From NCBI GenBank assembly GCA_964348135.1, contig CAYGBL010000007.1:9511-73510 (forward strand): a stretch of 64,000 bases of DNA. Reading direction: 5' to 3'. This document shows, one piece after another, positions 12,037-38,248 of this stretch (within the stretch, counting starts at the first letter, position 1; every line of letters begins with the position of its first letter). Source of the DNA: an uncultured Actinomycetota bacterium. Lineage in GTDB: Bacteria > Actinomycetota > Aquicultoria > JACQXZ01 > CAYGBL01. The translations under genes and the position numbers were made by a program. The notes under the pieces were generated by a model, which was given only the letters and a program-made list of their open reading frames with translations, ran no database searches and was not told where the DNA came from.

Positions 12037-12125
12037 GGTCTCACCCTCACCCTGACCCTCTCCCCTCAAGGGAGAGGAATAGTAATTCAAGATTGCTTCG
12101 CTGCGCTCGCAATGACAACTATTTC
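12037..12125 (+). repeat. REP-like dispersed element (CCCTCTCCC hairpin plus AGATTGCTTCGC-hairpin-CTCGCAATGACAA)
   Basis: The sequence is ctcaccctcaccctgaCCCTCTCCCCTCAAGGGAGAGGaatagtaattcaAGATTGCTTCGCTGCGCTCGCAATGACAA. A near-identical copy lies at 16752..16832. Variants with compensatory changes in the central stem lie at 14866..15110 (three copies in reverse orientation), 21335..21400, 25024..25060, 37950..37990 and 2686..2740. Confidence 0.75.
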
Positions 12126-12163
12126 ATTTATAGTGCATCTTGCATCATATATCGTGTATCGAT

Positions 12164-13417
12164 CTATAAGTATTTTCTCGGGTCTGCTATCTTTCCTTCA
12201 ATTGCTGAGGCGGCGACTGTTGCCGGTGAACCCAGATAGATAAATGCTTTGGGATTTCCCATTCTGCCTTTGAAGTTTCTATTGGCAGTAGAAATAACAT
12301 TTTCTCTATCAGCGGGAACTCCCTGATGTGTTCCCACGCAAGGGCCACAGCCTGGATTCACTACTACAGCACCTGATTCAATCAGGGTTGTCATTATACC
12401 TTCCCCCATTGCTTCAAGACATACATCGCGCGAGGCAGGAGCAACAACCATCCTTACATCAGGATTAACCATCTTTCCTTTGAGTATTCCGGCAGCTATC
12501 CGTAAATCCTCCAGGCGACCATTAGTGCATGTGCCCAGATATGCTTTTTGTATCGGAGTGCCCTCCACTTCGCTAATCGGTACCACATTGTCAACAGTAT
12601 GGGGTTTGGCAATTTGGGGTTCAAGCTTAGAAACATCATATTTTTTGACTTCAGCATATTTAGCATCTTTATCAGGAACAACCGTCTGAAAATCACGTTT
12701 ACTGTGACTCTTTACCCAGTCTTCCGTTTTTTCGTCAGCTAGCATCAAACCCGCCTTTGCTCCCATCTCTACTGCCATATTGGAAATAGTAAAGCGGGCA
12801 TCGACGCTTAAGGCATCTATTGCCTCCCCTGTATACTCTACTGCCATATAGGTCGCGCCGTCGGCAGTTACCTCCCCAATGAGAAAAAGAATTAGATCCT
12901 TGGAATATGCTCCCCGGGGCAAAGCGCTTTTAAGAACAAATTTGATAGTTTCGGGAACTTTAAACCAGAGCTTTCCAGAAAGAAGCCCAGCTGCCAGATC
13001 AGTAGAGCCAACACCGGTCGAAAAAGCATTTATCGCCCCATAGGTACAGGTATGGGAATCAGCTCCAATAACTAGATCACCCGGTACAACATGTCCCTGT
13101 TCTGCCATAAGCTGATGGCATACACCGCATCCAATATCATAGAGATTAATGCCAGTCTCTTTTGCAAACTCGCGCATCATGCCGTGAAGTTCCGAGACTC
13201 CAATCGAAGGACTGGGAGCGCTGTGGTCTATAACCATAATCACCTTGCTGGGATCAAAGACTTTACGCCCATTCATATCCCTAAAGGCTCTAATAGCTAA
13301 AGGTGAGGTGCCATCTTGCCCCATCATAAAATCAACGTCGGCGATAACTATATCGCCGGCGTAGACATCTTTTCCGCTATGCGCACTGAGTATCTTCTCA
13401 GCAATAGTCTTCCCCAT
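12164..13417 (-). CDS. leuC: 3-isopropylmalate dehydratase large subunit
   Basis: 417 aa, aconitase-family Cys ligands. Confidence 0.9.
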   Translation of the reverse strand: MGKTIAEKILSAHSGKDVYAGDIVIADVDFMMGQDGTSPLAIRAFRDMNGRKVFDPSKVIMVIDHSAPSPSIGVSELHGMMREFAKETGINLYDIGCGVCHQLMAEQGHVVPGDLVIGADSHTCTYGAINAFSTGVGSTDLAAGLLSGKLWFKVPETIKFVLKSALPRGAYSKDLILFLIGEVTADGATYMAVEYTGEAIDALSVDARFTISNMAVEMGAKAGLMLADEKTEDWVKSHSKRDFQTVVPDKDAKYAEVKKYDVSKLEPQIAKPHTVDNVVPISEVEGTPIQKAYLGTCTNGRLEDLRIAAGILKGKMVNPDVRMVVAPASRDVCLEAMGEGIMTTLIESGAVVVNPGCGPCVGTHQGVPADRENVISTANRNFKGRMGNPKAFIYLGSPATVAASAIEGKIADPRKYL

Positions 13418-14604
13418 TAACTCCCCTCCGCAGAGGCAGTCTTACTGCTTTTATATTTCTTATAAATCTGAACCAGCTCTTTGTCGAATAGAGCTCTCTT
13501 AAGCTCAACTGACATAGAACGCACATCCTTTAAAATTTCTATCGCTTCTTCTTCAGTCAATTCAATTCCATATTCTTTAAACTTGGCAATCAAAGCCCTG
13601 GTTCCAGAGTGCTTGCCGATAACGATTTGCCTCTCCAAACCAACCTCTTCAGGAGCAAAGACTTCATAGGTGATGGGATTTTTTATAACGCCATCTGCAT
13701 GAATACCCGACTCGTGGGCAAATACATTGGCACCCACTATGGCTTTCCATACGGGAATCGTGCGGGCCGACGCTTGGGCTACATACTCAGAAAGGCTGCG
13801 GAGCATCTCGGTTTTTAATCCAAGGTCGACTCCACCGATGTATTTCATTGCCATAACTATCTCTTCAAGAGCGGCATTCCCTGCCCGCTCGCCTAATCCA
13901 TTAACAGTAGTATTTACATATTTCGCTCCAGCTTTAACTCCGGCTAGAGCATTTGCGGTAGCCATCCCAAAGTCGTTATGGGTATGCATTTCAATTTCTA
14001 TTCCTACTTTTTCGTACAGGAACCTAACCGCTCTAAAGGTTTCAAAGGGATCAAGAATACCGAGAGTATCACAAAAACGCAAACGGTCTGCTCCCACTTC
14101 CTTCGCAGTGTTAGCAAATTGGATGAGAAAATCCATATTGGCACGTGAGGCATCTTCTGCATTAACTGACACATAAAGGTTTTGTTGCTTTGCAAAATCT
14201 ACGGCTTTCTTGATGCTTTCTAGAACCCAGAGCCTGCTCTGTTTGAGCTTGTGCTCTATATGAATGTCGGAAGCTGAAATACTTATGGCTACCGACTTTA
14301 CACCACAATTTAAGGAGTGCTCAACATCAGAAATAACTGCACGATTCCAGGCCAGAATGTCTGCATTTAAGCCTAAATCAACAATTTTCTTGATGGTTTC
14401 TTTCTCATCGCCACCCATCGCCGGTATACCGACCTCAATCTGGTGAACTCCTATTTCATCCAGTAACTGTGCTATCTGAATCTTTTCACGGTTGGCAAAT
14501 ACTACACCCGCAGTTTGCTCCCCATCCCGCAGTGTAGTGTCATCGATACAGACTACCGGCTCCTCTGGTTTGAGTTTTAGATCGGTAAGCTCATTTTTAT
14601 CCAA
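13417..14604 (-). CDS. leuA: 2-isopropylmalate/citramalate synthase (LeuA/CimA family, short form)
   Basis: It carries the DTTLRDGEQ motif. The start is TTG at 14604 after a GGAGGA RBS. It lacks the long C-terminal regulatory domain. Confidence 0.75.
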   Translation of the reverse strand: MDKNELTDLKLKPEEPVVCIDDTTLRDGEQTAGVVFANREKIQIAQLLDEIGVHQIEVGIPAMGGDEKETIKKIVDLGLNADILAWNRAVISDVEHSLNCGVKSVAISISASDIHIEHKLKQSRLWVLESIKKAVDFAKQQNLYVSVNAEDASRANMDFLIQFANTAKEVGADRLRFCDTLGILDPFETFRAVRFLYEKVGIEIEMHTHNDFGMATANALAGVKAGAKYVNTTVNGLGERAGNAALEEIVMAMKYIGGVDLGLKTEMLRSLSEYVAQASARTIPVWKAIVGANVFAHESGIHADGVIKNPITYEVFAPEEVGLERQIVIGKHSGTRALIAKFKEYGIELTEEEAIEILKDVRSMSVELKRALFDKELVQIYKKYKSSKTASAEGS

Positions 14605-15254
14605 GTCTATCCTCCTGCTTTAACTTATACTCAAAAATATTGTATAGGAAAAGGGGATATAGTAGCAAGTTGCAGAGTTTAGAGTTATAGATCAAGGAGA
14701 ATGAATTAAGGGACAGGGATAAAGGGACAATAGTGACAGGCTATGGATTTTAATATGGAGTTCAGTATGTATGAATAGTATTGCCAGTGCGCGAAATAAT
14801 CCAAAAACTGAACTTCAGTTTGAGACGTGGAACATATAAGTTGCAGGCGCAACCTTGGTATTGCCACGCTCGCTCTGACAAAAGTCAGCGCTCACTCGCA
14901 ATGACGAGGGGAACATTCAGTTGTTGCAAGTAGATTTGTTTTTCATCATTGCCAACATATTTGTTTTTAGCATTGCGCGCAGCGAAGCAATCTCGAATTG
15001 AAAATGACATTGGAGGAGCAAACTTTTCATCCTTTATCATTACGAGCGCAGCCATTTTCACCCTTTGTCATTACGAGCCCCGTCATAGGCGGGGCGAAGT
15101 AATCTTGCTTTAACTCAAAGCACAAAATTGCACTTGTAACATGCAACTGAAAACCAGGAAATTGTAACTTGCCAGTTTAAACTACAACCTGCAACCTTAA
15201 AACTTGAAATACATTTGTATATAAATATATAAATATAAATAAATATATATATTA

Positions 15255-16709
15255 CTACTGACTCTTGGCCAGTTTATCTTTGAGGAGTTTATTAACCATC
15301 TGGGGATTGGCTTTGCCCTGAGTAAGCTTCATTACCTGTCCTACCAGAAAACCCAACGCTTTCTCCTTGCCCTGCTTGAATTCTTCTACCACACTGTTAT
15401 TTTCGGTAATAACCTGTTCTACCAGCTTTGCGATTGCCTGTTCATCACTTATCTGAACCAGATCGAGCTCATCAATTATGATGTGGGGAAGCTTTCCGGT
15501 TTCAAATACCTCCTTGAATACTGTCTTGGCAATCTTCCCACTAATAGTTCCTTTATCCATAAGCTTGAGAAGCTCTACCAGATGCTTGGGAGTAACTGCA
15601 CACTCATCTATCTCCAGATTGGCAGCATTAAGCATTGCCGCTAGCTCACCATTAACCCAGTTTGCAACAATCTTTGCCTTCGAATAACCGCTTACTGCCT
15701 CCTCAAAGAAATCTCCGACTGCTTTCGAGGAAGTTAGAATGCGGGCATCATAAGCGGAAAGTCCAAAATTCTCTACAAACCGTTTAAGTCTGGCATCCGG
15801 AAGCTCAGGAAGGGTATCTTCTAATTCCTTTATCCAAGACCGATCAGGCTCAAGCGGCACTAAGTCCGGTTCAGGAAAGTAGCGGTAGTCATGTACCTCT
15901 TCTTTGGAACGAAGAGGCAAGGTTACATTATTGTCAGCATCCCAATGGCGAGTCTCCTGAACAACCTTTCCTCCTTCTTCCAGTGTCTCTCGCTGACGCT
16001 CGATTTCGTAGCTTAAACCTCTCTGGATAGCGCGAAAGGAATTCATATTCTTTATTTCTGTCTTGGTGCCAAAGACTTCTTCATTATGAATCCGCAAAGA
16101 GATGTTTGCATCACAGCGAAGAGACCCTTGTTCCATATTGCAGTCTGATACCTCCAGGTGTTCCAGGATACTTTTGAGCTTCTGGACAAAAGCTTTCGCT
16201 TCTTCCGGCGAACGGATATCCGGCTCTGTTACTATTTCAACCAGCGGTATGCCTGCCCGGTTAAAATCAACCAGACTATAGTCTGCTCCGCTGATCCGCC
16301 CTGTTTCGCTAATATGGACAAGCTTGCCTGTATCCTCCTCAAGATGGACTCTCGTTATTCCTACTTTGCGAGCGTAGCTGCCCATATCCACTTCAACAAA
16401 GCCATTGGTGCATACAGGCAAATCATACTGTGAAATCTGATAGTTTTTAGGCATGTCGGGATAGAAATAGTTTTTGCGGTGGAATTGGGTAAAGGGTGCG
16501 ACCTCACAGTTTAGCGCAAGGCCAATTTTTATGGTAAACTCTACAGCTTTCTCGTTTATCACAGGTAACGACCCCGGGTAACCCAGGCAGATAGGACAAG
16601 TCTGAGTATTTGGTTTCTCACCAAAGGTAACGGCACAGCCGCAAAACATCTTGCTCTGCGTTGATAGCTCAACGTGTATCTCTAATCCAATTACCGGTTC
16701 GTAGTGCAT
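15255..16709 (-). CDS. gatB: Asp/Glu-tRNA amidotransferase subunit B
   Basis: The N-terminus reads [12 protein letters not shown]. Confidence 0.9.
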
Positions 16710-16835
16710 GACTCAGTTCTCAGTTAACAGTTGACAGTTATTAGAGCTGTTTCTTACCCTCACACTGACCCTCTCCTTCAAAGGTGAAGGAAAACATGAG
16801 ATTGCTTCGCTGCGCTCGCAATGACAAAAATAAAT

Positions 16836-17010
16836 ATCTTCGCAATGATTAAAACAAATATATTTACAATGACCAAAACAAATACGCTCACAATGACTCA
16901 ATAATACGTGTGCAATGATAAAAACAAATACGCTTGCAATAACAAAATAAATATGTTTGTAATGACACAACAAATAAGTTCGTAATGACTAAAATAAATA
17001 CGCCCGTATT
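16836..17010 (+). repeat. tandem ~23-bp direct repeats (about 7 units) with a CAATGA core
   Basis: Successive units have the form AAAYAAATAyrytyrCAATGAyyAAAAC, with no spacers. The array sits between gatA and gatB, immediately 3' of a REP-like element. Confidence 0.8.
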
Positions 17011-17181
17011 GTCCAAATTGCCCTATTTTTGCAGGGCCGGCACCTGCGGTCTTCTGTTCTTAAGGGTACAATCCCCTTCCCTGCTGAACTCCTTAAAAGA
17101 GCTAGCTCCACTTTATTCACGGCAACGGCTCGAATATCGCGCATTATACATCGCGCAACTCGCAACTTAAAACACGACATG

Positions 17182-18639
17182 TTACAATTTTGGCTTCTCT
17201 TTCCACTTAAAACTTTGTTCAAATGCATAAGCGACTTTGAAGAGAGTCGACTCATCAAAAGCCTTGCCCATTATCTGCAGACCTATAGGCATTCCATCGG
17301 AATCGCTTCCACATGGAACCGATATCCCCGGAATTCCTGCAAGATTTACAGGAATAGTACAAATATCGGAAAGATACATCTGCAAAGGATCATCAATTCT
17401 TTCGCCAATCTTAAAAGCAACGGTTGGCGACGTTGGTGAAATAAGCACATCATACTTTTTAAAGGCGTTACTAAAATCTTCAACAATAAGGGTGCGCACC
17501 TTTTGTGCCTGCCCATAGTATGCCTCATAGTAACCAGCGCTTAAAGCGTAGGTTCCAAGCATAATTCTTCGCTTAACTTCATTTCCAAATCCTTCAGCCC
17601 GGCTTTTCTTATACATCTCAAGCATATCCTCAAATGCTTCAGTTCGGTATCCGTAACGTACCCCATCGTAACGCGCAAGATTGGAACTTGCCTCAGCAGG
17701 CGCAATAATATAGTAAGCGGAGAGAGCATAGTCAACGTGGCCCAAAGTTGTCTCCTCCACATCTACACCAAGGTGCCCTAGTACATCTATCGTATTTGAT
17801 ATAGCATCGCGTACCTCAACCTGTGTTCCTTCTCCGAGGAATTCTTTTGGCACTCCTATCTTCATTCCTTTCACATCGCCATCAAGTGCTTCTCTATAAT
17901 CAGGAATCTCAACAGGAGCAGACGTTGAATCGAGAGAATCATGCCCCGCAATAGCCTGAAGAAGCAGAGCTGAATCGGTAACATCTTTAGTAATCGGACC
18001 AATCTGATCAAGAGAAGAAGCAAAAGCCACCAGTCCGTAGCGTGAAACGAGACCATAGGTCGGTTTCATTCCCACTACTCCGCAGAGAGCCGCCGGCTGC
18101 CTAATGGATCCCCCAGTATCAGAACCTAAAGCCATAATAGCTTCATCGGCAGCTACGGCGGCTGCCGAACCTCCACTTGATCCTCCAGGAACTGTCTCAA
18201 CATTCCAGGGATTCCTGGTTGTAAAGAAACCAGAATTCTCAGTTGAGGAACCCATAGCAAACTCATCCATATTGGTTTTTCCCGTCATAACAATCTCTTG
18301 GTTGAGAAGACGGTCAACCGCGGTTGCGTTATATACAGAAATATAATTCTCGAGGATTTTAGAAGAGCACGTGGTACGGAGACCTTTTACGCACATATTG
18401 TCTTTGATAGCTATGGGAATCCCAGCCAGCAGAGGGAGCTCTTCTCCTTCCCTAATTTTGATATCTATTTGCGAAGCTTTCTTTAAAGCAGCTTCCTCGC
18501 TAAGTGTTACGTAGGCTTTAATATCAGGCTCAACCTGCTCAATTCGGGAAAATACGCTCTTACAGAGCTCAGTTGCGCTAATCTCCTTGTTCTTGAGCAT
18601 TTTATGAAGCTGATGAGCAGTAAGCTCATTTAATTTCAT
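17182..18639 (-). CDS. gatA: Glu-tRNA(Gln) amidotransferase subunit A
   Basis: It carries the amidase signature [12 protein letters not shown]. Confidence 0.9.
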
Positions 18640-18736
18640 AGAAAAATCCTATGGTATCATTAAGCATTGAGCTTAGAGCACAGAGCTTAGAAAAATATTT
18701 ATATCCTCGCTCATGGTTCTCTGCTCTCCGCTTGCT

Positions 18737-19021: not shown

Positions 19022-19111
19022 TCTAAAAAACCCCTTCAGTTCAGAGCTTCGAGCAACGAGCTTTAAGCTTTTTATGTTTTTACCTTCAGTTCATGGCTCG
19101 CTGCTGGTCGC

Positions 19112-21127
<2,016 letters not shown>

Positions 21128-21574
21128 TCACCTCTCTTAATAGAGCTAATTTCCATGCTTCAAAACAATTTTAATTCCTCTCCTCAACACAAGTCAATTT
21201 GTCCTTTCTTGATTATCTTCCAACGTAGTAGCATTATTATACTGAGACTAGCAATGGGATTAAAACCTGCAAAACTAAAATTCAAGATGCACAATACAAA
21301 AATTTCAACCAGCAATTCAAAAAGAGCAAGATTGCTTCTTACGCTACTGGCGTAGTCGCAATGATAGATCAAGCAATGACACCATTTTGTATCAAAGCGA
21401 TAAAATGTTTGACGAAGTGAGTTGTTTTTTGATTTTGATTTGCAATTCCAGTTTTAACTTTAACTTTCATACTCCTCTTTGGAGATAGGCTATAATAAGG
21501 TTTTTCTGGGCAAACAGGTCCCCACCTTACACTTTATGTTTATTGAGAAGCATAAATTTTAAATACTATGTGCG

Positions 21575-24880: not shown

Positions 24881-25126
24881 ATTATTCCTTCCGAAAACTG
24901 GTATTTACTAATTTCAAATTCTCTAAGACTTTAAGGTATATCAAGATTTTTTGGAAGGGTATATTATAAATGGACCCTCGGGGTAAGTAATTCCCTTCGA
25001 TGCAATTATTCGTAATATTGAGATTGTTTCGCTCTACTCACAATGATTATCAACACATATACTTCCAGCGTTGCTTATTTTCCTTTCACTCTTTGCCCGT
25101 GACTTCTGACCCTTGACTCTTTGTTC

Positions 25127-26017
25127 TCAGTTAGCCAGCATTTCCTTTTTTTTAACCCAAGGTTTCCCGGTGCCGAATTTGGTAAGAAGAACTGCTCCCA
25201 CACCTAAAAGAGAAATAACGAAACCTAGAAGCCCTCCGATAAAAGGAACAAATCTCAGAACTCCTACTATTAAAACACCCACAATCATCTCAAAAATTTG
25301 AGAGCTGGAAGCTGATTTTGCTACTTCAAAAATCCTTTTGCCAATAATGAGGCAGGCAGCAAAGTACCCGTAGATAAAGGAGATAATGACAAAGAGTATA
25401 AATAAGGGAATTAGAGCAATACCTATAAGCGTAATGGCGAGTACGACTATAGCGGGTATGATAAGTATAAAGGCTAGAAACCCAACCCCTATTGACTGCC
25501 AGGGTTCTCGGGCAATAAACAAAGCTGTCTTCTCAATATGATCGGGAATCAAAGCCACTATCAGTGCTCCCAAACCTATGGAGCCAAGAATTACTATAAA
25601 GTTAACAATGAGACTTACTCCCAACCAGGCTCCCGGGGACCAAAACCAACTGTATCTGGAGTCAAAAGGACTAATGTTCTGTGCTCCCCTAACACCGCCA
25701 CCAATTCGGGCTCCCGGTTCTCTCTCAATATTTCCCCCAATAACAGTAAGCTCACCGTTAATGTGCGCGCTTGACCTAAGCTCTGCATCTCCACCCAGGA
25801 CAACTACATTTCCAGTAACTGCACCAGCAATAGTTGCATCCCCGTTAAAGACAATTACATCCCCATATACAATCTCTCCTCTTCCTACATTGACGTCTCT
25901 GCCAAAACGGACAATGGTATCTTTGTTCCCATTAACTGATGACAAGGCAAAGCCGGGAATGAGAAAAAGAAAGACTGGAATAATTGCTATAATTGCCACA
26001 AGCTTTTTCATCTTCAA
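25127..26017 (-). CDS. membrane protein with N-terminal bactofilin-like (polymer-forming beta-helix) domain
   Basis: A signal or anchor is followed by repeated V.G.V.G....G motifs (VIVFNGDATIAGAVTGNVVVLGGDAELRSSAHINGELTVIGGNIE) and then four or five TM helices. Confidence 0.5.
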   Translation of the reverse strand: MKMKKLVAIIAIIPVFLFLIPGFALSSVNGNKDTIVRFGRDVNVGRGEIVYGDVIVFNGDATIAGAVTGNVVVLGGDAELRSSAHINGELTVIGGNIEREPGARIGGGVRGAQNISPFDSRYSWFWSPGAWLGVSLIVNFIVILGSIGLGALIVALIPDHIEKTALFIAREPWQSIGVGFLAFILIIPAIVVLAITLIGIALIPLFILFVIISFIYGYFAACLIIGKRIFEVAKSASSSQIFEMIVGVLIVGVLRFVPFIGGLLGFVISLLGVGAVLLTKFGTGKPWVKKKEMLAN

Positions 26018-26067
26018 CCTCCATTCTTAAATTCAGGATGCACATTATTAGCCGCAGGTTTTTTGTT

Positions 26068-26330
26068 ATACACCTTCACCCTATCCCTCTCCCTCAAGGG
26101 AGAGGGATTGCTTTTTACTCTCTCAAGGTAGGGAACTACTTGTTTGTCTCTCCCTAAAGGGAAAGAAATTGCTTTTTTGAATCCCTCACTCAAGGGAGAG
26201 AAATTGCTCTTCTTCTCTCCCCTAAGAAAAGGAATTGTTTGCTCATTTATCTCTCCTTCAAGGTATAGAAATTGTTTATTCTTTCCCTAAAAGAAGAAAT
26301 ACTGCCTACTTGTGTCTCTCAAGAGAGACT
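26068..26330 (+). repeat. tandem array of ~34-bp hairpin units (about 8 degenerate copies)
   Basis: The unit is CTCTCCCTCAAGGGAGAG(r)AATTGCTTTTT. Each unit contains a self-complementary CTCTCCC/GGGAGAG stem. The array lies between the bactofilin-like gene and the UPF0182 gene. Confidence 0.75.
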
Positions 26331-30260: not shown

Positions 30261-32957
30261 CTACTTTTTAGCTTTCTCAATTCTCACAGCACAAACTTTA
30301 AGTTCGGGAATTTTGGCCATTGGATCCAGAGCGGGATTGGTGAGTACATTCGCAGGAGCTTCTCGAAAATGAAATGGCATAAAGATAACTCCATCCCGAA
30401 CTCTTTCCGTAACCCTTGCGTTCGCTTCTATTCGTCCCCGCCTGGTTGCAAGCGTTACCTTATCCCCGTTCTCAATTTTATATTTCTTTGCGTCTTTAGG
30501 ATTTATCTCTACCTGAGCAATAGGAGAAATTTCATCAATTCCCCGGTTGCGTCTGATCATCGTGCCGGTATGAAATTGGAACAGCAACCTCCCGGTAGTG
30601 AGGATAAGAGGATAATCCTTATCTGTTTCTTCCGCCGGTGATCTATATTCAACTGGATAAAATTTACCCTTTCCCCGGGCAAAAGCTTGAGTGTGCAGAA
30701 TCGGGGTACCTGGATGAGCATCATCAGGACAAGGCCACTGTAGACCCTCCTTCTCCAATCTCAAGTAGCTTATTCCACCGTAGGAAGGCGTAAGCCCGGC
30801 AATCTCCTCTGCTATCTCCCGAGATGAATTATAGTTCATATTCTTGTAACCCATTCTGCTAGCCAGCTCACATATAATTTGCCAGTCCGGTTTTGCTTCA
30901 CCCGGAGGTTCTATTGCTTTTCTTACCCGTTGAATTCTACGCTCAGTATTGGTGAAAGTGCCGTCCTTTTCTGCAAAAGTAACACCGGGGAGCACAACAT
31001 CAGCCAGTTCGGCAGTTTCGGTCATAAAAATATCCTGAACTACCAAAAAATCGAGTTTCTCAAGACCTTTCTTTACATGCGTAATGTCAGGGTCAGAAAG
31101 CATAGGATTTTCACCCATGATATATAATGCCCTGACTTCTTGCTTCAAGGCAGCATCCATAATTTCAATAACGGTCAGACCTGATCTAGCGGGAAGTGCA
31201 CTGTCCCAGTGCTCCTCAAATTTAGCACGCAGTTCCTCGTTTTCTACTGACTGATAACCAGGGAATACATTGGGTAACGCTCCCATATCACATGCGCCCT
31301 GTACATTATTCTGTCCTCTCAGAGGATTAACACCTGTTCCGGGTTTTCCTATGTTCCCTGTAGCCATAGCCAGGTTAGCAAGAGACAGCACATTGTCAGT
31401 TCCTGTGCTATGCTGGGTAATTCCCATTGAATAGATTATGCTTGCTCTCTCTGCCCGGCCAAAGAGCCGCGCTGCTTCTATGAGTTTTTCTGCAGGAACA
31501 CCGGAAATTTTCTCCACTTTCTCAGGCGTGTAACTACTCAACATCTCTTTCAATTTGCTGAAGCCCTCGGTCCGCTCTCTAATAAACTCAGTATCGACCA
31601 AGCCCTCTTCGAGAATTACGTTTAACATCCCATTGAAAACGGCCACGTCCGTACCTGGCTTTTGACTCAGCCAGACATCTGCCATTTGAGCAAGCTCAAT
31701 TTTGCGAGGATCGACAACTATAAGCTTTGCACCCTTGTCCCAAACTGCCTTTTTAATCTCCAGAGCCAGGACTGGATGTGCCTCAGTAGTATTGGAGCCT
31801 GTTACCAGAATTGTGTCAGCCTCAGCAATATCATCTATAGAATTGGTCATTGCCCCACTTCCGAAAGCCATGGCTAAACCGGTTACGGTTGAAGCATGGC
31901 AAAGCCGAGCGCAGTGGTCTACATTATTGGTACCGATAACCGCTCTCATAAATTTCTGGAAGAGATAGTTGTCTTCATTGGTACATTTCGCTGAGCTTAG
32001 TCCCGCAATTGCATCTGCTCCATATTTCATCTTTATATCCGAGAACTTGCCGGCTACCAAACTGAGCGCTTCATCCCAGGATGCCTCTACAAACTCTCCT
32101 TCCTTCTTTATGAGAGGAACTTTCAGCCTGTCAGGATTGTTGATAAACTCATATCCAAAACGGCCTTTGACGCAGAGATTACCCTTGTTTACTCCCAACT
32201 CCAAGTCTGCAGATACGCCAATTACCTCTCCGTTTTTTGCATAAAGCCGTAAACGGCAGCCCACTCCGCAGTAAGGGCAGGTTGTTACAGTTTGAAGTGT
32301 CTCCCAAATTCTACCTTTGTACTTTCTAAGTTTTCCGGTAAGTGCACCCACCGGACAAGTAGACACACACTGACCGCAAAAAACGCAGGGTGTTTCCACA
32401 AGTGAACGGTCAAAAGGTGTAGAGGTTACCGTTTCAAAGCCTCTATTCGCAAATTCAAACACATAGCACCCTTGTACCTCAGTACAAATGCGCACACATC
32501 TTCCACAGAGAACACACTTATTATGATCTCTTTCGATGAAGGGATTAAAGTCCTCTACCGTATAGCTGTGCTTTTCTCCCCTATATCTTATCTCATCTAT
32601 GTTAAGCTCATAGGCGAGATCCTGCAGGCGGCATCTTCCCACACTTTCGCATGTCAAACACTCCAAAGGGTGATCGGATAATAGAAGCTCAATAACGGTC
32701 CTTCGAATTTTATAAAGAGAGACAGTGTCTGTCTTAACTACCATTCCTTCAGTTACTAAAGTAGTGCACGCTGGCAAAAAGCTCTTAGCTCCCTCTACTT
32801 CTACCAAACAGACCCTGCATGCGCCGTAAGGCTTTAATCTTGGATCATGGCAGAGGGTGGGAATATAAATCCCTTCGGCTCTGGCTATCTCTAAGATAGT
32901 TTTACCGGTTTCCGCCTTTACTTTTCTATTGTTGATTGTAAGTGTAATTTCGTTCAT
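30261..32957 (-). CDS. fdhA: formate dehydrogenase catalytic subunit (Mo/W-bisPGD), Cys-type, with NuoG-like N-terminal 2Fe-2S/4Fe-4S domains
   Basis: 898 aa. The N-terminus carries a ferredoxin-like fold (CHDPRL..GACRVC). The molybdopterin region contains CPYCGVGC. The active site reads HCARLCH, so it has Cys where FdhH has Sec. Confidence 0.85.
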   Translation of the reverse strand: MNEITLTINNRKVKAETGKTILEIARAEGIYIPTLCHDPRLKPYGACRVCLVEVEGAKSFLPACTTLVTEGMVVKTDTVSLYKIRRTVIELLLSDHPLECLTCESVGRCRLQDLAYELNIDEIRYRGEKHSYTVEDFNPFIERDHNKCVLCGRCVRICTEVQGCYVFEFANRGFETVTSTPFDRSLVETPCVFCGQCVSTCPVGALTGKLRKYKGRIWETLQTVTTCPYCGVGCRLRLYAKNGEVIGVSADLELGVNKGNLCVKGRFGYEFINNPDRLKVPLIKKEGEFVEASWDEALSLVAGKFSDIKMKYGADAIAGLSSAKCTNEDNYLFQKFMRAVIGTNNVDHCARLCHASTVTGLAMAFGSGAMTNSIDDIAEADTILVTGSNTTEAHPVLALEIKKAVWDKGAKLIVVDPRKIELAQMADVWLSQKPGTDVAVFNGMLNVILEEGLVDTEFIRERTEGFSKLKEMLSSYTPEKVEKISGVPAEKLIEAARLFGRAERASIIYSMGITQHSTGTDNVLSLANLAMATGNIGKPGTGVNPLRGQNNVQGACDMGALPNVFPGYQSVENEELRAKFEEHWDSALPARSGLTVIEIMDAALKQEVRALYIMGENPMLSDPDITHVKKGLEKLDFLVVQDIFMTETAELADVVLPGVTFAEKDGTFTNTERRIQRVRKAIEPPGEAKPDWQIICELASRMGYKNMNYNSSREIAEEIAGLTPSYGGISYLRLEKEGLQWPCPDDAHPGTPILHTQAFARGKGKFYPVEYRSPAEETDKDYPLILTTGRLLFQFHTGTMIRRNRGIDEISPIAQVEINPKDAKKYKIENGDKVTLATRRGRIEANARVTERVRDGVIFMPFHFREAPANVLTNPALDPMAKIPELKVCAVRIEKAKK

Positions 32958-33053
32958 CGTTCACCTTTAGCAGTTCGCAGTTTTCAAGTGTCAGTTGACA
33001 GTTTTTCATATTTGTTATCTACCAACTGCCATCTACCGACTGCGAACTGCGAA

Positions 33054-33491
33054 CTAAAATTTTTGCTTCTTCTTCCTGCTTGTAACCCTTACTCCACCTT
33101 CAACCAGGACGCAGTCGATGCAATCCTTGATAAAGAAAGCGATATCGGATACGGAAAGGATACCCACCGGTCTCTCTCCTTCTACTACCGGTAACCTTCG
33201 AATGGCAAGCTCCTGCATAAGCTTCGCGGCTTTCACCAGATCCATTTCCGGAGTTAGCGGAATAAAATCCTCAGACATATATTCGCTGACTTCAACTTTG
33301 TTTGGATCAATCCCTTCGGCAATTGCCGTATGTGTTATCTGGCGGTCAGTAATTAGCCCAACCAACTTTTCTTTCTGAACAATCAACACAGAGCCTACCT
33401 TTTCCTCGCGCATTTTCCTTGCTGTCTCGGTAATGCTCGCTCGAGGACCTACCGACACTACCCGTCTAGTCATAATGTCCTTTACTTTCAT
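33054..33491 (-). CDS. CBS-pair domain protein
   Basis: 145 aa with two CBS motifs. Confidence 0.75.
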   Translation of the reverse strand: MKVKDIMTRRVVSVGPRASITETARKMREEKVGSVLIVQKEKLVGLITDRQITHTAIAEGIDPNKVEVSEYMSEDFIPLTPEMDLVKAAKLMQELAIRRLPVVEGERPVGILSVSDIAFFIKDCIDCVLVEGGVRVTSRKKKQKF

Positions 33492-33592
33492 TTGCTCCTC
33501 CCCATTCTCAGAAAGCTCAGAGCTCGGAGCTTAGAGCTTAGAGAAATCTTTTCCTATATACTCTTGCTCTATGCTCTCCGCTCTCTGCTCAT

Positions 33593-35407
33593 TCAGGCTT
33601 GATATATTGCATCAAAAGGACAATGTTCAATACATATAAGACATTTGATACATTTTTCATCATTTACATGATAGACTTCTTTTCGCTTTCCACTAATTGC
33701 ACCCACGGGGCAATGCCTTGTACATACCGCGCAGCCGGTACATAGCTTCTCGCTAATGATAACAGACAGAAGATCTTTGCATACACCAGCTTCACACTTA
33801 CCTTCCTTCACATGTGTCTCGTATTCGGGACGAAAATATTTCAGCATAGTTAGCACCGGGTTGGGCGCAGTCTGTCCAAGTCCGCAAAGAGAGGATATCT
33901 TTACGTCCCGTGCCAGCTGTGCCAGATTATCAATCGTATTTTCATCTGCTTCTCCCTTAGTTATCTGATCCAGCATTTCAAGCATCCGTTTAGTTCCCAA
34001 CCGACAGGGCACGCACTTTCCACACGATTCTCGTTGAGTAAAGGTAAGGAAGAACCTGGCTAAATCTACCATACAGGTTTTATCATCCATAACCACCATG
34101 CCACCGGAACCCATAATGGCGCCAGTAGCAACCAGCGACTCATAGTCAATCGGTGTATCTAAAAAATCTTTGGGCAAACATCCACCTGATGGACCTCCTA
34201 TTTGAACGGCCTTGAATTCACTGGTATCTTTAACTCCACCGCAGACATTAAAGATTACTTCTCTCAGCGTAGTACCCATTTGTACCTCAACTAGTCCACT
34301 ATTTTTAACTTTTCCCGTAACTGCAAATATTTTAGTTCCTTTACTCTTCTCGGTGCCGCGAGAATTAAATTTCTTACTTCCCTGCAATACTATCCAGGGA
34401 ACATTAGCAAGAGTCTCCACGTTGTTGACGCAGGTAGGCATCTGCCATAGACCTGAATGCGCCGGAAAAGGTGGGCGAACTCTCGGCATTCCCCTCCTAC
34501 CCTCAACGGAAGCTATGAGCGCCGTCTCTTCACCGCATACAAACGCACCTGCTCCCTCTTTAATATTGATATCAAAGGAAAAATTGGAGTCGAGAATGTT
34601 TTTACCTAGAAATCCTGATGTTCTCGCCTGTTCTAAGGCAATCCGAAGCCTTCTTACCGCAAGCGGGTATTCCGCACGAACATAGATGTAACCCTCATCA
34701 GATCCAATCGCATAACCAGCTATAGCCATTCCCTCGATAACACTGTGGGGATCTCCTTCCAACACACTCCTGTCCATAAATGCTCCGGGATCTCCTTCAT
34801 CAGCATTGCAGATAACATATTTCTTATCAGCTTGAACGTCCTTAACGAATTGCCATTTCATACCGGTAGGAAAACCTGCGCCCCCTCTTCCACGGAGACC
34901 CGACTTTTTAATCTCCTCAATTAATTGTTGTGGAGAGAAATCTGCAAGCACACCGGCCAAAGCTTTATAACCATTACTCCTTATATACTCCTCTATGTTT
35001 TCCGGATCAATTTTTCCACAGTTCCGAAGGACAATTCGTTCCTGGTTTTTATAGAAATCGATATTTTTATAGAGCGGAATTTTCCTTCCTGTTTTCGGGT
35101 GAGAATATAAAAACTCCCTCACTACGTCACCAGCAATCAGATGCTCTTCAACTATACGAGGCACGTTCTCTATCGTAGTCTGCGGGTAAAATATCCCCTC
35201 TGGCTGGATTACAACTATCGGCCCTTTACTGCAAAACCCGTGGCAGCCGGTAAGCTTTATCCCAATATCTTTGGTAAGTTTCTTACGCCCCAACTCCTGG
35301 GAAAAAGCCTCTTCGACGTCCAAAGAGCCCGATAAAACGCAGCCTGTTCCAGCGCAGATTAGAATCTCTTTATCATTAGTTTTGGGGTTTTCAGCCCTTT
35401 TGTTCAT
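33593..35407 (-). CDS. NuoF/HoxF/HndC-like NAD(P)H-binding flavoprotein subunit (FDH/hydrogenase diaphorase)
   Basis: 604 aa. It has an N-terminal thioredoxin-like 2Fe-2S domain, then the FMN/NADH-binding 51-kDa region, then two C-terminal 4Fe-4S motifs (CTGCAVCTRHCP, CIKCLICIEHCP). Confidence 0.85.
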   Translation of the reverse strand: MNKRAENPKTNDKEILICAGTGCVLSGSLDVEEAFSQELGRKKLTKDIGIKLTGCHGFCSKGPIVVIQPEGIFYPQTTIENVPRIVEEHLIAGDVVREFLYSHPKTGRKIPLYKNIDFYKNQERIVLRNCGKIDPENIEEYIRSNGYKALAGVLADFSPQQLIEEIKKSGLRGRGGAGFPTGMKWQFVKDVQADKKYVICNADEGDPGAFMDRSVLEGDPHSVIEGMAIAGYAIGSDEGYIYVRAEYPLAVRRLRIALEQARTSGFLGKNILDSNFSFDINIKEGAGAFVCGEETALIASVEGRRGMPRVRPPFPAHSGLWQMPTCVNNVETLANVPWIVLQGSKKFNSRGTEKSKGTKIFAVTGKVKNSGLVEVQMGTTLREVIFNVCGGVKDTSEFKAVQIGGPSGGCLPKDFLDTPIDYESLVATGAIMGSGGMVVMDDKTCMVDLARFFLTFTQRESCGKCVPCRLGTKRMLEMLDQITKGEADENTIDNLAQLARDVKISSLCGLGQTAPNPVLTMLKYFRPEYETHVKEGKCEAGVCKDLLSVIISEKLCTGCAVCTRHCPVGAISGKRKEVYHVNDEKCIKCLICIEHCPFDAIYQA

Positions 35408-35898
35408 TCAACTTCCTTCTGCTTGGGTTCTCTTCTCACTGTTTTCTTAATAGCCTCTGTTGCGCTCTCTGAATTTAGTCTTCCGTACGTCTTCTTGTTT
35501 ATCATCATCACAGGAGCAAGCCCGCATGCTCCCAGACAAGCAACCGTCTCCAAAGAAAAAATACCGTCTTTGGTAGTCTCTCCAATCTCAATTTCCAGCT
35601 CACTCGAAATGTCGTCAGAAATTTTTGCCGCTCCACTTACGTAACAAGCAGTACCGTGACACACCTTAATCATATGTTTTCCGCCGGGATGGAGCCGAAA
35701 TTGACCGTAAAAAGTGACCACCCCGTAGATTTGGCTAAGCTTCACACCGGTGTGATTAGCGATATACTCAAGAATCTCCTCCGAAAGATACCCGTAGGCA
35801 TGCTGAGCTTCCTGCAAGACGGTAATTAGGGTGCCCTTCTCACCTTTGTATTTATCAAGTATTTGATTTAATTTTTTGAAATCTTGTTTCTTAGCCAT
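35404..35898 (-). CDS. NuoE/HoxE-like 2Fe-2S thioredoxin-like ferredoxin subunit
   Basis: 164 aa with the CHGTACYV...CLGACGLAP motifs. Confidence 0.85.
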   Translation of the reverse strand: MAKKQDFKKLNQILDKYKGEKGTLITVLQEAQHAYGYLSEEILEYIANHTGVKLSQIYGVVTFYGQFRLHPGGKHMIKVCHGTACYVSGAAKISDDISSELEIEIGETTKDGIFSLETVACLGACGLAPVMMINKKTYGRLNSESATEAIKKTVRREPKQKEVE

Positions 35899-36014
35899 TC
35901 TTTACACTTCTTTTGATGAAATGCTAAATATGATTCAAGGATTCCGAGGTTCAAGGATTCACGTGACATATTTCCCTCGAATCCTCAGTTCCCTGGTTCC
36001 CTGAATCCTTTAAT

Positions 36015-37028
36015 CTAGTTAAAATACTTTTCTCTTATTGCTTTTGAGAGCTGATTGGTCAATTTGTAACTCTTTTCTGCCAGCTCTTCTGACATTGCTC
36101 CGGTCCCACAAGTCGGCATAATCAAGCTTGCTTCAAGCAGTCTCCCAATTTCAAAACCCTTGGAAGCAATAAGCTCTAGTGCCTGATCAAATCTCTCCAG
36201 CAGGCTTTCAATGCTTTCTCTGGCGATCCGATCAGGCTCTGGAAAAGCAGCTGGCACTATGCCCCAGGCAAGAGCCCCTCCTCTGTCCAAGAAGCTTCCT
36301 ATCTCTTTGGGATACAAAGCCAGATTCTTGGTATAATCATATGCATCGAAGTGGATAATATCGGTGCTTGTTTCAGCAATCATACTCCAATCGGTATTGC
36401 CGCAGACATGTACACCCTTCAATCCTTCTAGCTCAGAAAAACACTCGTTTATATATTTAATTACATCTCCTCTGCTCACACTCACATAAGCCGAGCCGTA
36501 AGCCCGCAAATATGGCTCATCCAGAAAAATTATGGTTTGAGCGTCAGGATAAATCTCTTTTAATTTTTTCTCCTGCCAATGCGCCTTTCTTGCCAGAGCT
36601 TTCACCACCGTATCCATAAGTTGCTCATTATATATCACTGCCTGCTTCTTCTCATCTGCAACAGTAAGCCCAAAAGTTATGGGTCCGGTAATCTGACCTT
36701 TAAGCCATTTGACTTCACTTTCTCTTTTTTCCAACTCCTTTAAGAAACAATATAGCCCCTGAGCATAATTCTCGCTTATGCCGAAATAATCAAGATTGCC
36801 AGTGATGTACTTCTCGTAAAATTTTTCTATCTTTGACGTGAAATCTCGAGAAGTATCAAAATATATTTTCTTCTCTTCTTCCTCTACGATGACCCCGGGC
36901 ATACCCTCAGCACATTGAACATACATACTTTCCAGAAATGATCTATTAGGTAGCTGCGGCCATGCTGGTAATTCAGTCAGATTCCCGAAGACAATCCTAC
37001 ATGCTTCTTCAGGGTCTTTGTGGGGCAT
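36015..37028 (-). CDS. uroporphyrinogen-decarboxylase (URO-D) family methyltransferase, MtaA/CmuA-like
   Basis: 337 aa. A putative Zn ligand set is present: HVCG (H-x-C) plus a later MPTCGTG Cys. Confidence 0.5.
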   Translation of the reverse strand: MPHKDPEEACRIVFGNLTELPAWPQLPNRSFLESMYVQCAEGMPGVIVEEEEKKIYFDTSRDFTSKIEKFYEKYITGNLDYFGISENYAQGLYCFLKELEKRESEVKWLKGQITGPITFGLTVADEKKQAVIYNEQLMDTVVKALARKAHWQEKKLKEIYPDAQTIIFLDEPYLRAYGSAYVSVSRGDVIKYINECFSELEGLKGVHVCGNTDWSMIAETSTDIIHFDAYDYTKNLALYPKEIGSFLDRGGALAWGIVPAAFPEPDRIARESIESLLERFDQALELIASKGFEIGRLLEASLIMPTCGTGAMSEELAEKSYKLTNQLSKAIREKYFN

Positions 37029-37118
37029 GCTGCCGATAACAGTTGCTGCGCATTTAGGAATAAAAATTGCGATGCTTACGCCTCCTTAGTAAGTTTCGGA
37101 AGGAGACAAGCCCCTTGC

Positions 37119-37904
37119 CTACACGGTAGCCTTCCATAGCTCTTTAGCCAAATTTTCTATATCCTTGGCAAATTCACCATCAGCTTCATAGGGCGGTATT
37201 CCCTTAAGGTCTGCCTGTCTTATCTTAGAACTAGCTCTTACAGAGCCCAACCACTTAAAATCACTCAATACCTTTTTTAAATGATTTTTCTCATTCTTGC
37301 CGCCAATTTTGTTGAAAACTACATAAATTCTTTTAATTCCTAAATCGGATGCCAGCTCCTTGATGGACTGCGCAGTCTTAATGCTGCTTTCTCCCGGTTC
37401 AACCACAATTATTAGTATGTCTACCGAATCAGCGGTACCCCGGCCCAAATGCTCAATTCCCGCCTCCATATCCATTATTACTATCTCTTCTCTCTCGATA
37501 AGCAGATGGCGAATCAAATTTCTAAGTAGACTGCTCTCTGGACAAATACAACCTGAACCTCCACGTTGAACTCCACCCATCACTAACAGTCTAATCCCGA
37601 ACTTCTGAATACTGAACCGCTCCGGGATGTCATCAACCTTCGGGTTGAGCTTAAACAGGCCTACCGGATCAGAGCCTGCCCCCGTTCTTTCCTCTACCAA
37701 CTCCTTCATCTGAGAAAGAGGGACCACCTCTCTTAGCTCCGTATCTGTCATTCCAATAGACGAAGCAAGGTTAGCATCAGGATCAGCATCTACGGCAAGG
37801 ATTTTATAGCCCTGCTCTGCATAGTAACGCGCAAGGCTAGCAGCTATGGTAGTTTTTCCTACTCCTCCTTTTCCACTTATGGCAATCTTCATTCCATTCA
37901 TCAC
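37119..37904 (-). CDS. cooC: CODH nickel-insertion accessory ATPase CooC/AcsF (MinD/ParA family), copy 2
   Basis: It carries the Walker A motif KIAISGKGGVGKTT. Confidence 0.8.
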   Translation of the reverse strand: MMNGMKIAISGKGGVGKTTIAASLARYYAEQGYKILAVDADPDANLASSIGMTDTELREVVPLSQMKELVEERTGAGSDPVGLFKLNPKVDDIPERFSIQKFGIRLLVMGGVQRGGSGCICPESSLLRNLIRHLLIEREEIVIMDMEAGIEHLGRGTADSVDILIIVVEPGESSIKTAQSIKELASDLGIKRIYVVFNKIGGKNEKNHLKKVLSDFKWLGSVRASSKIRQADLKGIPPYEADGEFAKDIENLAKELWKATV

Positions 37905-38248
37905 TACAATGAAGATAACGAGTAACCCCTAATGTCTTACTCGAAACCTACAGATTTGAGATTGCCACGCCCTGCGGGCTCGCAATGACAATAATAAGAG
38001 AGTCACTTATGGCAATCTTGATTCCTTTTAGCACCTCAGAATAGTCCCTTTCTTAGTGACCTGAAGAGCACTCTACCTCTTGCAGGCTCCAGTTTTTGAA
38101 TATACTCTGAGGACCTAAAATTCCGCTCATCCTTATCTTTTAGCTGGGAGCCATCAGCTATGTGCATCATTGGTAGTCATCCAGTCGCCTAATCGCCAGG
38201 CTTCCCTTCAGACTACACTCTTGACCATTGTTCCCTGACTCTCGACTT

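Follow-up and report, generated by a model that had tools for sequence, protein, structure and literature searches.

The window, a 64-kb stretch of DNA from an uncultured Actinomycetota bacterium, contains eight copies of a hairpin repeat between 12 and 38 kb, four of them intact and four degenerate, as established by sequence reading and a covariance model; neither approach gave a further element of comparable score in the remainder of the 64 kb. The consensus of the window element is (A)GATTGC-TTCGC-[variable hairpin]-CTC-GCAATGAC(AA). Of its end motifs, AGATTGCTTCGC has five matches in the window at ≤1 mismatch where 0.37 are expected, and CTCGCAATGACAA has five where 0.11 are expected, while the covariance model recovers seven copies at E≤0.1 and copy C at E~1. 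These counts uphold a preliminary description of the sequence, which had reported eight or more REP-like copies with common ends and had placed them in operon spacers and a leader, a gene context that is also as described. For the window genes taken as 'leuA/leuCD', the best-scoring assignments are a NifV-type homocitrate synthase and a pair of the homoaconitase/IPM-isomerase family.

Intact and degenerate copies of the element

On one strand, termed the R-form, the element reads (C/T)GTC - ATTGC - GAG - [variable inner hairpin] - GAA - GCAAT - C, such that an outer helix of 5 bp is followed by an internal loop of conserved sequence, 3x3 (or 3x2), and by an inner helix of 2 to >8 bp that is free in both sequence and length, with loop inserts ranging from 3 to about 50 nt. 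Copy A (12090-12118, + strand) is an intact short form in the spacer between the leuD-like and leuC-like genes, with exact matches and a covariance model score of 43.3 bits (E 4e-7); its R-form, the strand bound by Ssn nucleases in the interpretation developed below, is the - strand, TTGTC-ATTGC-GAGCGCAGCGAA-GCAAT-C. Copy E (16799-16827, + strand), in the gatB/gatA spacer, is 100% identical to copy A (repeat family D11) and likewise scores 43.3 bits. Copy D (15065-15105, - strand; 39.7 bits, DNA fold z = -3.8) is intact, with both sides of its outer stem changed to ATTAC/GTAAT and with the inner stem CCCCGCC..GGCGGGG; sequence reading places an additional 3' half-site beside it at 15036-15060 on the - strand. 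Copy G (37959-37991, + strand; 37.8 bits), also intact, has the inner stem CCC..GGG and lies 55 nt upstream of a cooC-like start codon. All four of these copies retain TGTC as their tag and a C directly 3' of the palindrome (R-form TTGTC-ATTGC...GCAAT-C).

Each of the other four copies lacks one of these two directional features. Copy B (14859-14905, + strand; 17.7 bits, E 0.1), a long form with the inner hairpin GCTCTGAC..GTCAGCGC, has the tag CGTC and, on the R-form strand, an A rather than a C after the palindrome. Copy C (14960-14993, - strand; 12.7 bits) has a 2-nt deletion and the tag AGC in place of GTC, with two half-site units of 25 nt after it. The tag is ATC in both copy F (25021-25049, + strand; 23.8 bits, E 0.005), the outer stem of which is altered on both sides (ATTGT/ACAAT), and copy H (21329-21367, the feature extending to 21380, + strand; 20.1 bits, E 0.03, fold z = -2.5), which has the inner stem ACGCTAC..GTAGCGT and, for its 3' half, two alternatives (21356-21365 and 21371-21380). 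Copies in the window stand alone or tail-to-tail, have AATCTT or AATCTC at their ends and, in six of eight cases, are oriented alike with respect to the - strand genes.

Covariation of the stems

The four central stems first quoted from the window (TGCG, CCCCG..CGGGG, CCC..GGG and ACGCTAC..GTAGCGT) are all present, and the compensatory variation claimed for them is real and persists with more copies aligned, the stems co-varying in the window and over ~500 copies of other genomes. In an alignment of 91 distinct copies from other genomes, throughout which the tags are invariant, paired cells amount to 87.9% compared with 76.2% in shuffles, and the covariation score of 0.182, compared with 0.073 when shuffled, was reached by 0/500 shuffles, with all slid registers scoring ≤0.061. 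Within 1.14 Mb of fetched loci, 47 fully complementary non-canonical stem variants were found (TCGC/GCGA 24, CTGC/GCAG 8, and others), a number to be read alongside the ~44 non-random single-mismatch variants and ~3 chance matches expected. Short-form copies showed no unusual hairpin stability by nearest-neighbour energy (z about +0.9). Outside the window, the base following GAC is G in 89/150 copies and A in 49/150, and alphaproteobacterial copies terminate in AATCCAG. The covariance model of ATTGC copies still gives the Neisseria NTS ~17 bits.

Accessory repeats, half-site arrays and the cooC duplication

Two of the copies are preceded by a CACCCT-rich tract on the + strand. Before copy A (12039-12079; repeat families D3, D8 and D19) the tract carries a CCCTCTCCC/GGGAGAGG hairpin, and before copy E (16752-16792; family D8, 78% identical to 12039-12079) a degenerate CCTCTCC hairpin. 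Rfam whalefall-1 gave a sub-threshold match at 12043-12080, over the first of these tracts. The preliminary description had such a hairpin ahead of many copies, which is overstated, since the CCCTCTCCC/GGGAGAGGG hairpin sits ahead of A and E only among the eight; it also makes up an array of its own, of four to five CTCTCCCT..AGGGAGAG hairpins (26067-26300, + strand; family D3), each of which is followed by (G/A)ATTGCTTTT, a 5' half of the element. The 3' half (TCGCAATGAC), joined to an A-rich spacer, forms the unit of a tandem array of ~8 units of 23-24 nt (16816-17003, + strand; families D1 and D6), and a short tandem array lies by copy C (14924-14976). Both had been described as tandem 23-mers and both are real, TRF finding 7.9 units with a period of 24 in the larger, over 16816-17000, and 2.2 units in the smaller. 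Loci L157, L167 and L174 from other genomes carry similar half-site arrays.

On either side of copy G stands the 5' coding end of cooC, a 22-bp direct duplication (37874-37895 and 38004-38026) that is identical at 21 of 22 bases and was recovered as a 16-nt exact repeat in a flanking-repeat search; the duplicated sequence includes GGCAATCTT, which resembles an element arm. The duplication had been reported earlier with its second coordinate off by one, and taken as consistent with mobilisation or recombination. It is real; however, flanking duplications are not general in the family, which precludes reading this one as a target-site duplication.

Distribution and gene partner of the element

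The ATTGC-type motif is not confined to the window, as had been anticipated, nor to one lineage: at least 120 genome records carry it, among them those of Alpha- and Gammaproteobacteria, Chloroflexota, Cyanobacteria, Bacteroidota, Patescibacteria, Planctomycetota, Desulfobacterota, Bacillota, Omnitrophota and Spirochaetota. The gap from a reverse copy to the forward copy that follows has two peaks, at 10-50 nt (124 of 183) and at 280-450 nt. Inverted doublets are formed in Alphaproteobacteria, and both gene-less doublets and solo copies are dispersed in intergenic DNA.

When 2,436 ORFs from 120 element-bearing loci were compared all against all, one neighbour family alone recurred, a single-domain GIY-YIG protein of ~95 aa that belongs to the Ssn family. 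This protein matches Pfam GIY-YIG and the UPF0213 structures 1zg2 and 1ywl, and is 44% identical (E 2e-26) to the N. gonorrhoeae SsnA homologue. In the usual layout a reverse copy stands 10-40 nt before the ssn start and a forward copy 0-45 nt after the stop: of 79 GIY-YIG loci, 57 (72%) have a reverse copy shortly before the start codon, 49 (62%) a forward copy that begins ≤45 nt past the stop and in 16 cases abuts the stop codon, and 32 (41%) both, similar to the values published for Ssn-related motifs (SRMs) at ssn, 71% for any copy and 42% for both (PMC11893778). Within a unit the left copy mostly differs internally from the right, 3/32 pairs being perfect, and the flanks of the 32 complete units have Y|GTC...GAC|R symmetry only. 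Sinorhizobium meliloti and Novosphingobium aromaticivorans share this reverse-gene-forward layout, there built of classical CGTC REPs, and in Azospirillum lipoferum the GIY-YIG gene has a REP dimer on either side; in Neisseria gonorrhoeae the order is inverted, the NTS/dRS3 copy upstream of the gene being forward and the one downstream reverse. No ssn gene was found within the 64-kb window; a relative with 83% GatB identity has ssn directly upstream of gatA, with its own co-varying hairpins.

Discussion

The elements of the window are, with a probability of about 85%, gene-less copies of the SRM, the same class as the CGTC-tagged REPs. These REPs were described in 2013 by Di Nocera, De Gregorio and Rocco (BMC Genomics, PMC3733652), at which time the enzyme was unknown. 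Chenal et al. (Nat Commun 2025) have since found that Ssn nucleases bind such hairpins and cut just 5' of them: SsnA of Neisseria and Wolbachia, with related SsnA proteins, binds the hairpin as ssDNA only, on the tagged strand only, and cuts a few nt 5' of the tag, ignoring dsDNA and RNA, and in Neisseria it lowers the integration of incoming motif-bearing DNA (PMC11893778). The SRM/NTS and the ATTGC element are alike as oriented hairpins with (C/T)GTC directly 5' of the palindrome, a C directly 3' and a stem starting with AT, and both are found as hundreds of gene-less intergenic copies. The CGTC-1 to CGTC-4 REPs, which include Rickettsia RPE-4 and RPE-6 as well as Neisseria dRS3 (the Neisseria NTS being a longer form of dRS3, one of the SRMs), share the CGTC/TGTC tag, the AT-initial stem, a spread over several phyla and the lack of a RAYT partner; they are mostly head-to-head dimers with a CCA tail, which in the ATTGC family is paralleled by the predominance of 10-50-nt gaps and by the CCAG tail of alphaproteobacterial copies, though not by the window copies.

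There are differences from both descriptions. The CGTC-1 to CGTC-4 REPs have perfect 8-9-bp stems and 4-5-nt loops, whereas in the ATTGC element an outer stem of 5 bp leads through an internal loop to an inner stem that varies, and the copies of the window are not dimers but solo, with a CTT or CTC tail. Unlike the published SRM, the ATTGC stem is interrupted by a conserved GAG/GAA internal loop above which the inner stem is free, the terminal half of the element forms tandem arrays, and the host is an uncultured Actinomycetota, a group not mentioned in the SRM study (PMC11893778). Furthermore, the published SRM search sequence, HGTCWYN(0-2)YYVSBRHN(0-5)WNVSBRGN(0-2)RNCYNB, matches 0/8 window copies on either strand and neither the short nor the long canonical ATTGC consensus. 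In control searches it matched Neisseria and Azospirillum and missed an ssn-flanking S. meliloti copy; the search sequence is a tool and not a definition. Published mutagenesis indicates that the sequence of the motif matters and not its structure alone, and recognition of the ATTGC sub-family across Ssn proteins therefore cannot be assumed. The absence of ssn from the window, the ordinary stability of the short-form hairpins and the lack of a strand bias relative to GC skew also weigh against the assignment; such a bias would be expected if the element acted only on the lagging-strand template.

It had also been considered that the hairpins act at the RNA level, as operon elements (processing or stabilising hairpins, attenuators or terminators) maintained by selection on RNA structure, given that copies occupy the leuC/leuD and gatA/gatB spacers and the 650-bp leader, that their pairs co-vary and that most window copies are co-oriented. 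However, this is very unlikely for several reasons: first, no T-run follows any copy on either strand, as an intrinsic terminator would have, and Rfam returns no match other than the sub-threshold one. Second, orientation between co-directional genes is unbiased over the 120 loci (33 vs 29). Third, relatives lack copies at the same spacers, so that the copies are dispensable for those operons. Finally, RNA is not bound by the published SsnA. On the second and last of these grounds a small-RNA function, as first suggested, is also unsupported.

The preliminary description had looked to a RAYT, encoded elsewhere in the genome, as the enzyme moving classical REPs or REPINs. The short intergenic palindrome, the inverted doublets of Alphaproteobacteria and the co-varying stems are indeed REP-like, and the parallel with REP/REPIN-RAYT systems (GTAG REPs, BIMEs) extends to a hairpin recognised as ssDNA by a small nuclease, the gene of which lies between inverted copies, to dispersed gene-less singlets and doublets, and mosaics with other short modules. 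Nevertheless, a RAYT is an extremely improbable partner: the tag is (C/T)GTC and not the GTAG of RAYT-linked REPs, the gene between inverted copies encodes a GIY-YIG protein, which alone recurs beside the element, and Di Nocera et al. 2013 (PMC3733652) found no RAYT gene flanked by CGTC REPs. The enzymes also differ in kind, Ssn being a hydrolytic GIY-YIG nuclease, whereas a RAYT is an HUH tyrosine transposase with a covalent intermediate that can rejoin DNA. We know of no strand-transfer activity for Ssn. It is scarcely credible that the element is a MITE of a DDE-transposase insertion sequence inserting with target-site duplications, which the inverted copies around a small gene and the 22-bp duplication at copy G call to mind, given that no transposase is associated with the element in the 120 loci, that perfect pairs of copies are rare, that flanking direct repeats show no excess beyond that due to neighbouring element copies and that 22 bp far exceeds the usual target-site duplications.

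The SRM assignment carries predictions for the individual copies. Since both directional features are kept in A, D, E and G, these copies are predicted to serve as substrates for an Ssn homologue that another part of this Actinomycetota genome would encode, and B, C, F and H would be decaying copies. Copies may multiply by break-and-repair copying triggered by a nick, of which the half-site arrays and the cooC duplication would be by-products. A further and rather doubtful possibility is that the ATTGC type is a distinct SRM sub-family, present in ten or more phyla, missed by published searches and built on a bipartite hairpin, with the arrays and the cooC duplication as footprints of nick-triggered copying; such a hairpin may combine a recognised outer module with a freely replaceable inner stem. 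If this is true, these footprints would provide the first clue at the level of sequence to the multiplication of SRMs.

The pairing of such hairpins with an Ssn nuclease is already published (PMC11893778), the basic picture of the known Ssn/SRM system is unchanged, and what is new is modest: a sub-family that fails the search motif, an interrupted stem, half-site arrays and an Actinomycetota host. In summary, the repeat is identified and its presumed partner enzyme is corrected from RAYT to Ssn, by which two literatures that do not cite each other, on the CGTC-tagged REPs (2013) and on Ssn/SRM (2025), are joined. Given that a very widespread sub-family escapes the search motif, published SRM counts are probably underestimates. 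With its intact and decayed copies, its arrays and a single duplication, the window offers concrete material for the study of Ssn specificity and of the spread of these repeats.

Results

Eight copies of an ATTGC-type hairpin element were identified in the window, all confined to 12-38 kb, at 12090-12118 (copy A, + strand, covariance-model score 43 bits), 14859-14905 (B, +, 18 bits), 14960-14993 (C, -, 13 bits), 15065-15105 (D, -, 40 bits, with an additional 3' half at 15036-15060), 16799-16827 (E, +, 43 bits), 21329-21367 (H, +, 20 bits), 25021-25049 (F, +, 24 bits) and 37959-37991 (G, +, 38 bits). This bears out the at least eight copies claimed in the preliminary description, given that all eight were recovered both by reading and by a covariance model trained on element copies of other genomes, and that the end motifs are far over-represented in the window, with five matches at no more than one mismatch to AGATTGCTTCGC (0.37 expected) and five matches to CTCGCAATGACAA (0.11 expected); the covariance-model scan of the 64 kb yielded no credible copy beyond those found by reading. 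Judged by the published Ssn determinants, copies A, D, E and G are intact, each having kept its TGTC tag as well as the C that follows the palindrome; in copy B an A replaces this C and the tags of copies C, F and H are altered, and these four look like decaying copies. The tandem 23-mers and the cooC 5' duplication also described there were both found, the former at a period of 23/24 (7.9 units at 16816-17000 and 2.2 units at 14924-14976) and the latter with 21 of 22 bases identical between 37874-37895 and 38004-38026. The unit duplicated at cooC contains GGCAATCTT, which resembles an arm of the element. The CCCTCTCCC/GGGAGAGGG hairpin said to precede many copies is real and lies ahead of A and E only.

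The window carries several other repeats. Ahead of A and E, at 12039-12079 and 16752-16792, a CACCCTCACCCTGACCC tract accompanies the CCCTCTCCC hairpin; the - strand of these tracts reads GGGGAGAGGGTCAGGGTGAGGGTGAG and could form a putative G-quadruplex. Rfam whalefall-1 gives a sub-threshold match at 12043-12080 (18.9 bits, E 0.26), and similar GGGAGAGG modules stand ahead of copies in three loci fetched from other genomes (L005, L010 and L098). Between the 25127-26017 ORF and a UPF0182-like gene, 4-5 short hairpins (CTCTCCCT-nAA-GGGAGAG; CCCTCTCCC/GGGAGAGGG type) are arrayed over 26067-26300, each followed by (G/A)ATTGCTTTT, which resembles the Ssn-related element's 5' half. Tandem heptamers (CTTAGAG, CTCTATG, ATTCCTA and GTTCACG) and CAGTTGACAGTT-type units fill many of the intergenic spacers, with heptamer-type repeats at 50834-50910, 52867-52927, 56799-56825 and 33017-33043 and a repeat family, D2, at 16696, 32960, 56800 and 56902; the heptamer repeats resemble cyanobacterial STRR repeats, and the host genome is Actinomycetota-like. 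A cyanobacterial host, which the heptamers would suggest, is rejected on the grounds of the Wood-Ljungdahl genes and of GatB homologues in Actinomycetota MAGs.

The gene contexts first assigned to the copies stand, with the genes on the - strand. For the genes that had been called leuA (13417-14604), leuC (12164-13417) and leuD (11537-12034), however, the best-scoring families are a NifV-type homocitrate synthase (TIGR02660, 539 bits, above the curated cut-off) and a homoaconitase/isopropylmalate-isomerase family pair. Given that the same three-gene set also scores as the large and small subunit families of the archaeal-type homoaconitase/IPM-isomerase, the pathway encoded at 11537-14604 may be leucine or lysine/homocitrate.

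All copies have one fold plan in common, in which a 5-bp outer stem (ATTGC/GCAAT) encloses a sequence-conserved internal loop (+ form, TTC/TC; complementary form, GAG/GAA) and, within this, an inner stem that is free in sequence and length. The outer stem is altered on both sides in copy D (ATTAC/GTAAT) and copy F (ATTGT/ACAAT). By nearest-neighbour energy the long copies are unusually stable (z -2.5 to -3.8) and the short ones are not (z ~+0.9), so that the case for structure rests on covariation and not on energy. Across 1.14 Mb of fetched DNA, anchored solely on the unpaired conserved bases, 508 copies had a fully complementary outer stem, 461 of them canonical and 47 changed on both sides (including TCGC/GCGA 24 times, CTGC/GCAG 8, TCAC/GTGA 5 and TTAC/GTAA 3), beside ~3 expected by chance and ~44 non-random single-mismatch variants. 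The co-variation first proposed for the stems holds with more copies aligned: in 91 distinct copies, 87.9% of cells are paired under the named structure against 76.2% when shuffled, and the covariation score of that structure, 0.182 compared with 0.073 in shuffles, is reached by 0 of 500 shuffles and falls to 0.061 or less in every slid register. The outer-stem covariation figures are inflated by copy selection; those of the inner stem, each pair of which shows at least four pair types, are unaffected. The element is a real, well-structured repeat family.

The element is not lineage-specific. A scan of species-representative genomes with the pattern GATTGCTTCGC-N(2-30)-TCGCAATGAC returned at least 120 records, so that the motif, far from being restricted to the window, is carried by at least 120 genome records; hosts among the matches listed include Bradyrhizobium, Sphingomonas, Chloroflexus, Nostoc, Microcoleus, Bacteroidia and Patescibacteria, as well as Planctomycetota, Desulfobacterota, Sporomusa, Omnitrophota, Spirochaetes and Gemmatimonadales. 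The most frequent form among the matches listed is the 26-mer GATTGCTTCGC-TNCGC-TCGCAATGAC; longer forms have an additional hairpin in the middle of the element, and the usual form in Alphaproteobacteria is an inverted doublet (GTCATTGCGAG..GAAGCAATCCAG, ~20 nt, CTGGATTGC..GCAATGAC). Searches of the window and ten loci against Rfam, at gathering and permissive thresholds, gave no relevant match, and full-text literature searches for the element's DNA strings and their spurious translations returned primers or no match.

When 2,436 ORFs of the 120 loci that bear the element were compared all against all, a single small family proved to adjoin the element recurrently (in L039, L077, L106 and L114), a ~95-aa protein with a Pfam GIY-YIG domain that matches the UPF0213 structures 1zg2 and 1ywl. 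The preliminary description had suggested looking for a REP-associated tyrosine transposase (RAYT) as partner. This idea is wrong: the only recurrent neighbour family across the 120 loci is GIY-YIG, and CGTC-tagged REPs are stated to be without association to transposase genes (PMC3733652). Among 80 metagenome loci encoding relatives of this protein, 79 had enough flank to score; a reverse copy lies ~10-40 nt 5' of the start codon in 57 of the 79 (72%), a forward copy begins within 45 nt past the stop in 49 (62%), abutting the stop codon in 16 of these, and both flanking copies are present in 32 (41%). The distance from a reverse copy to the forward copy that follows has two modes, 10-50 nt for doublets and 280-450 nt where the gene lies inside. 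In just 3 of 32 gene-bearing units do the left and right copies mirror each other perfectly, so that the conserved feature is not a long 5'-3' stem spanning the gene, and no target-site duplication is visible at the flanks of such units. The long (33-nt) reverse copies ahead of the nuclease gene, ssn, in L122-L201 read GTCA-TTGCGA-16 nt-AGCAAT-C, in which TTGCGA/AGCAAT is a candidate weak sigma-70-like -35/-10 pair at a suitable distance from the start codon; only 9 nt separate these hexamers in the 26-nt short form.

No ssn gene was found within the 64-kb window. The nuclease gives a weak tblastn match at 1210-1317, which is spurious, as another ORF occupies the opposite strand. In the relative L202 (83% GatB identity), ssn lies at 139-438 within the gatCAB region, directly ahead of gatA and co-oriented with the operon, between hairpins that share the plan and have other co-varying stems (ATTCT/AGAAT and ACTCT/AGAGT). 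At this position the window has just a 97 bp heptamer-rich spacer, and the gatC-gatA spacers of the two are too diverged for an empty-site alignment.

Discussion

The class of this repeat and its partner enzyme are already described. The association of the repeat with a GIY-YIG gene was published by Chenal et al. 2025, who found the Ssn-related motif (SRM) near 71% of homologues and on both sides in 42% (PMC11893778); the flank counts obtained here for the ATTGC sub-family (72%, 62% and 41%) independently reproduce these figures. The 94-aa SsnA of N. meningitidis (cd10448) binds the NTS hairpin CGTCATTCCCGCGMAVGCGGGAATCYRG solely as ssDNA and solely on that strand, cleaves a few nt upstream of the hairpin and is inactive on dsDNA and RNA; binding depends critically on the C that follows the palindrome, and cutting on the three bases preceding it, and deletion of ssnA leads to ~five-fold more transformation with NTS-bearing DNA (PMC11893778). 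The protein adjoining ATTGC-type copies shares 44% identity with the SsnA homologue of the gonococcus (E 2e-26), and the ATTGC covariance model scores the Neisseria NTS at ~17 bits and Azospirillum copies at ~15 bits.

CGTC-tagged REPs, as defined by Di Nocera et al. 2013, combine a CGTC/TGTC tag with a stem that starts with AT and with a CCA tail, are mostly head-to-head dimers, were found in five phyla and include Neisseria dRS3 and Rickettsia RPE-4 and RPE-6 (PMC3733652). CGTC-1 (GTCATTCCCGCGAAAGCGGGAATC) and CGTC-3 (GTCATTGCCGGGCTTGACCCGGCAATCCA), reconstructed from peptides in the supplement of PMC3733652, agree in tag, AT start and trailing C with the window element, whose stem is interrupted in contrast to their perfect 8-9 bp. 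In annotated replicons the same GIY-YIG gene has classical CGTC REPs on either side, with a reverse-gene-forward layout in Sinorhizobium meliloti and Novosphingobium aromaticivorans. In Neisseria gonorrhoeae, the order of the NTS/dRS3 repeats around the gene is reversed, with forward copies upstream and reverse copies downstream, an adjacency that could be due to chance given that these repeats are very abundant there. On plasmid AZO_p3 of Azospirillum lipoferum 4B (255506-255799), ssn separates sufB from sufC and is itself bordered on both sides by a CGTC-REP dimer; such units are therefore tolerated in essential operons, as this one sits inside an Fe-S assembly operon. None of the 8 window copies matches the degenerate search sequence published for SRMs, and neither does the ATTGC consensus or the S. 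meliloti copy. Given this failure and the interrupted stem, the element is filed as a new sub-family of the known class.

The repeat and its structure, its distribution across phyla and its gene partner were observed in this analysis; single-strand binding and cleavage of one strand are taken from the literature (PMC11893778). On this basis, an Ssn homologue encoded elsewhere in this genome would act on copies A, D, E and G, and copies would arise and decay. Such turnover is supported by the leuC|leuD and gatA|gatB spacers, which are without copies in the relatives L202, L203 and L204, and by the degeneracy of half of the window copies. Arrays of terminal halves occur in the window and in L157, L167 and L174, and these half-site arrays, together with the cooC duplication, would fit break-and-repair events at these sites but are no proof of them. 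Neither co-directional genes (33 vs 29) nor local GC skew (28/51) revealed an orientation bias, and the target-site-duplication test gave no general flanking duplication, the excess of flanking repeats being due to neighbouring copies.

The same relatives display further variation in their spacers. L202 and L203 have the same heptamer-filled spacers with other heptamers, and the leuC|leuD spacer of L203 (8056-8476) and L204 (8056-8432) is occupied by a small gene for a 23S-rRNA-IVS protein (PF05635, four-helix bundle) at the position that copy A has in the window, the relative carrying it having 72% GatB identity. This gene is flanked by inverted heptamer-repeat arms (GTTGGGAGTTAGGAG.. / ..CCAACTCCCAACTAAC), and the two assemblies differ by indels within it (82 vs 105 aa).

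What is new here is a sub-family missed by the published motif, its modular inner stem, its half-site arrays and its Actinomycetota host.
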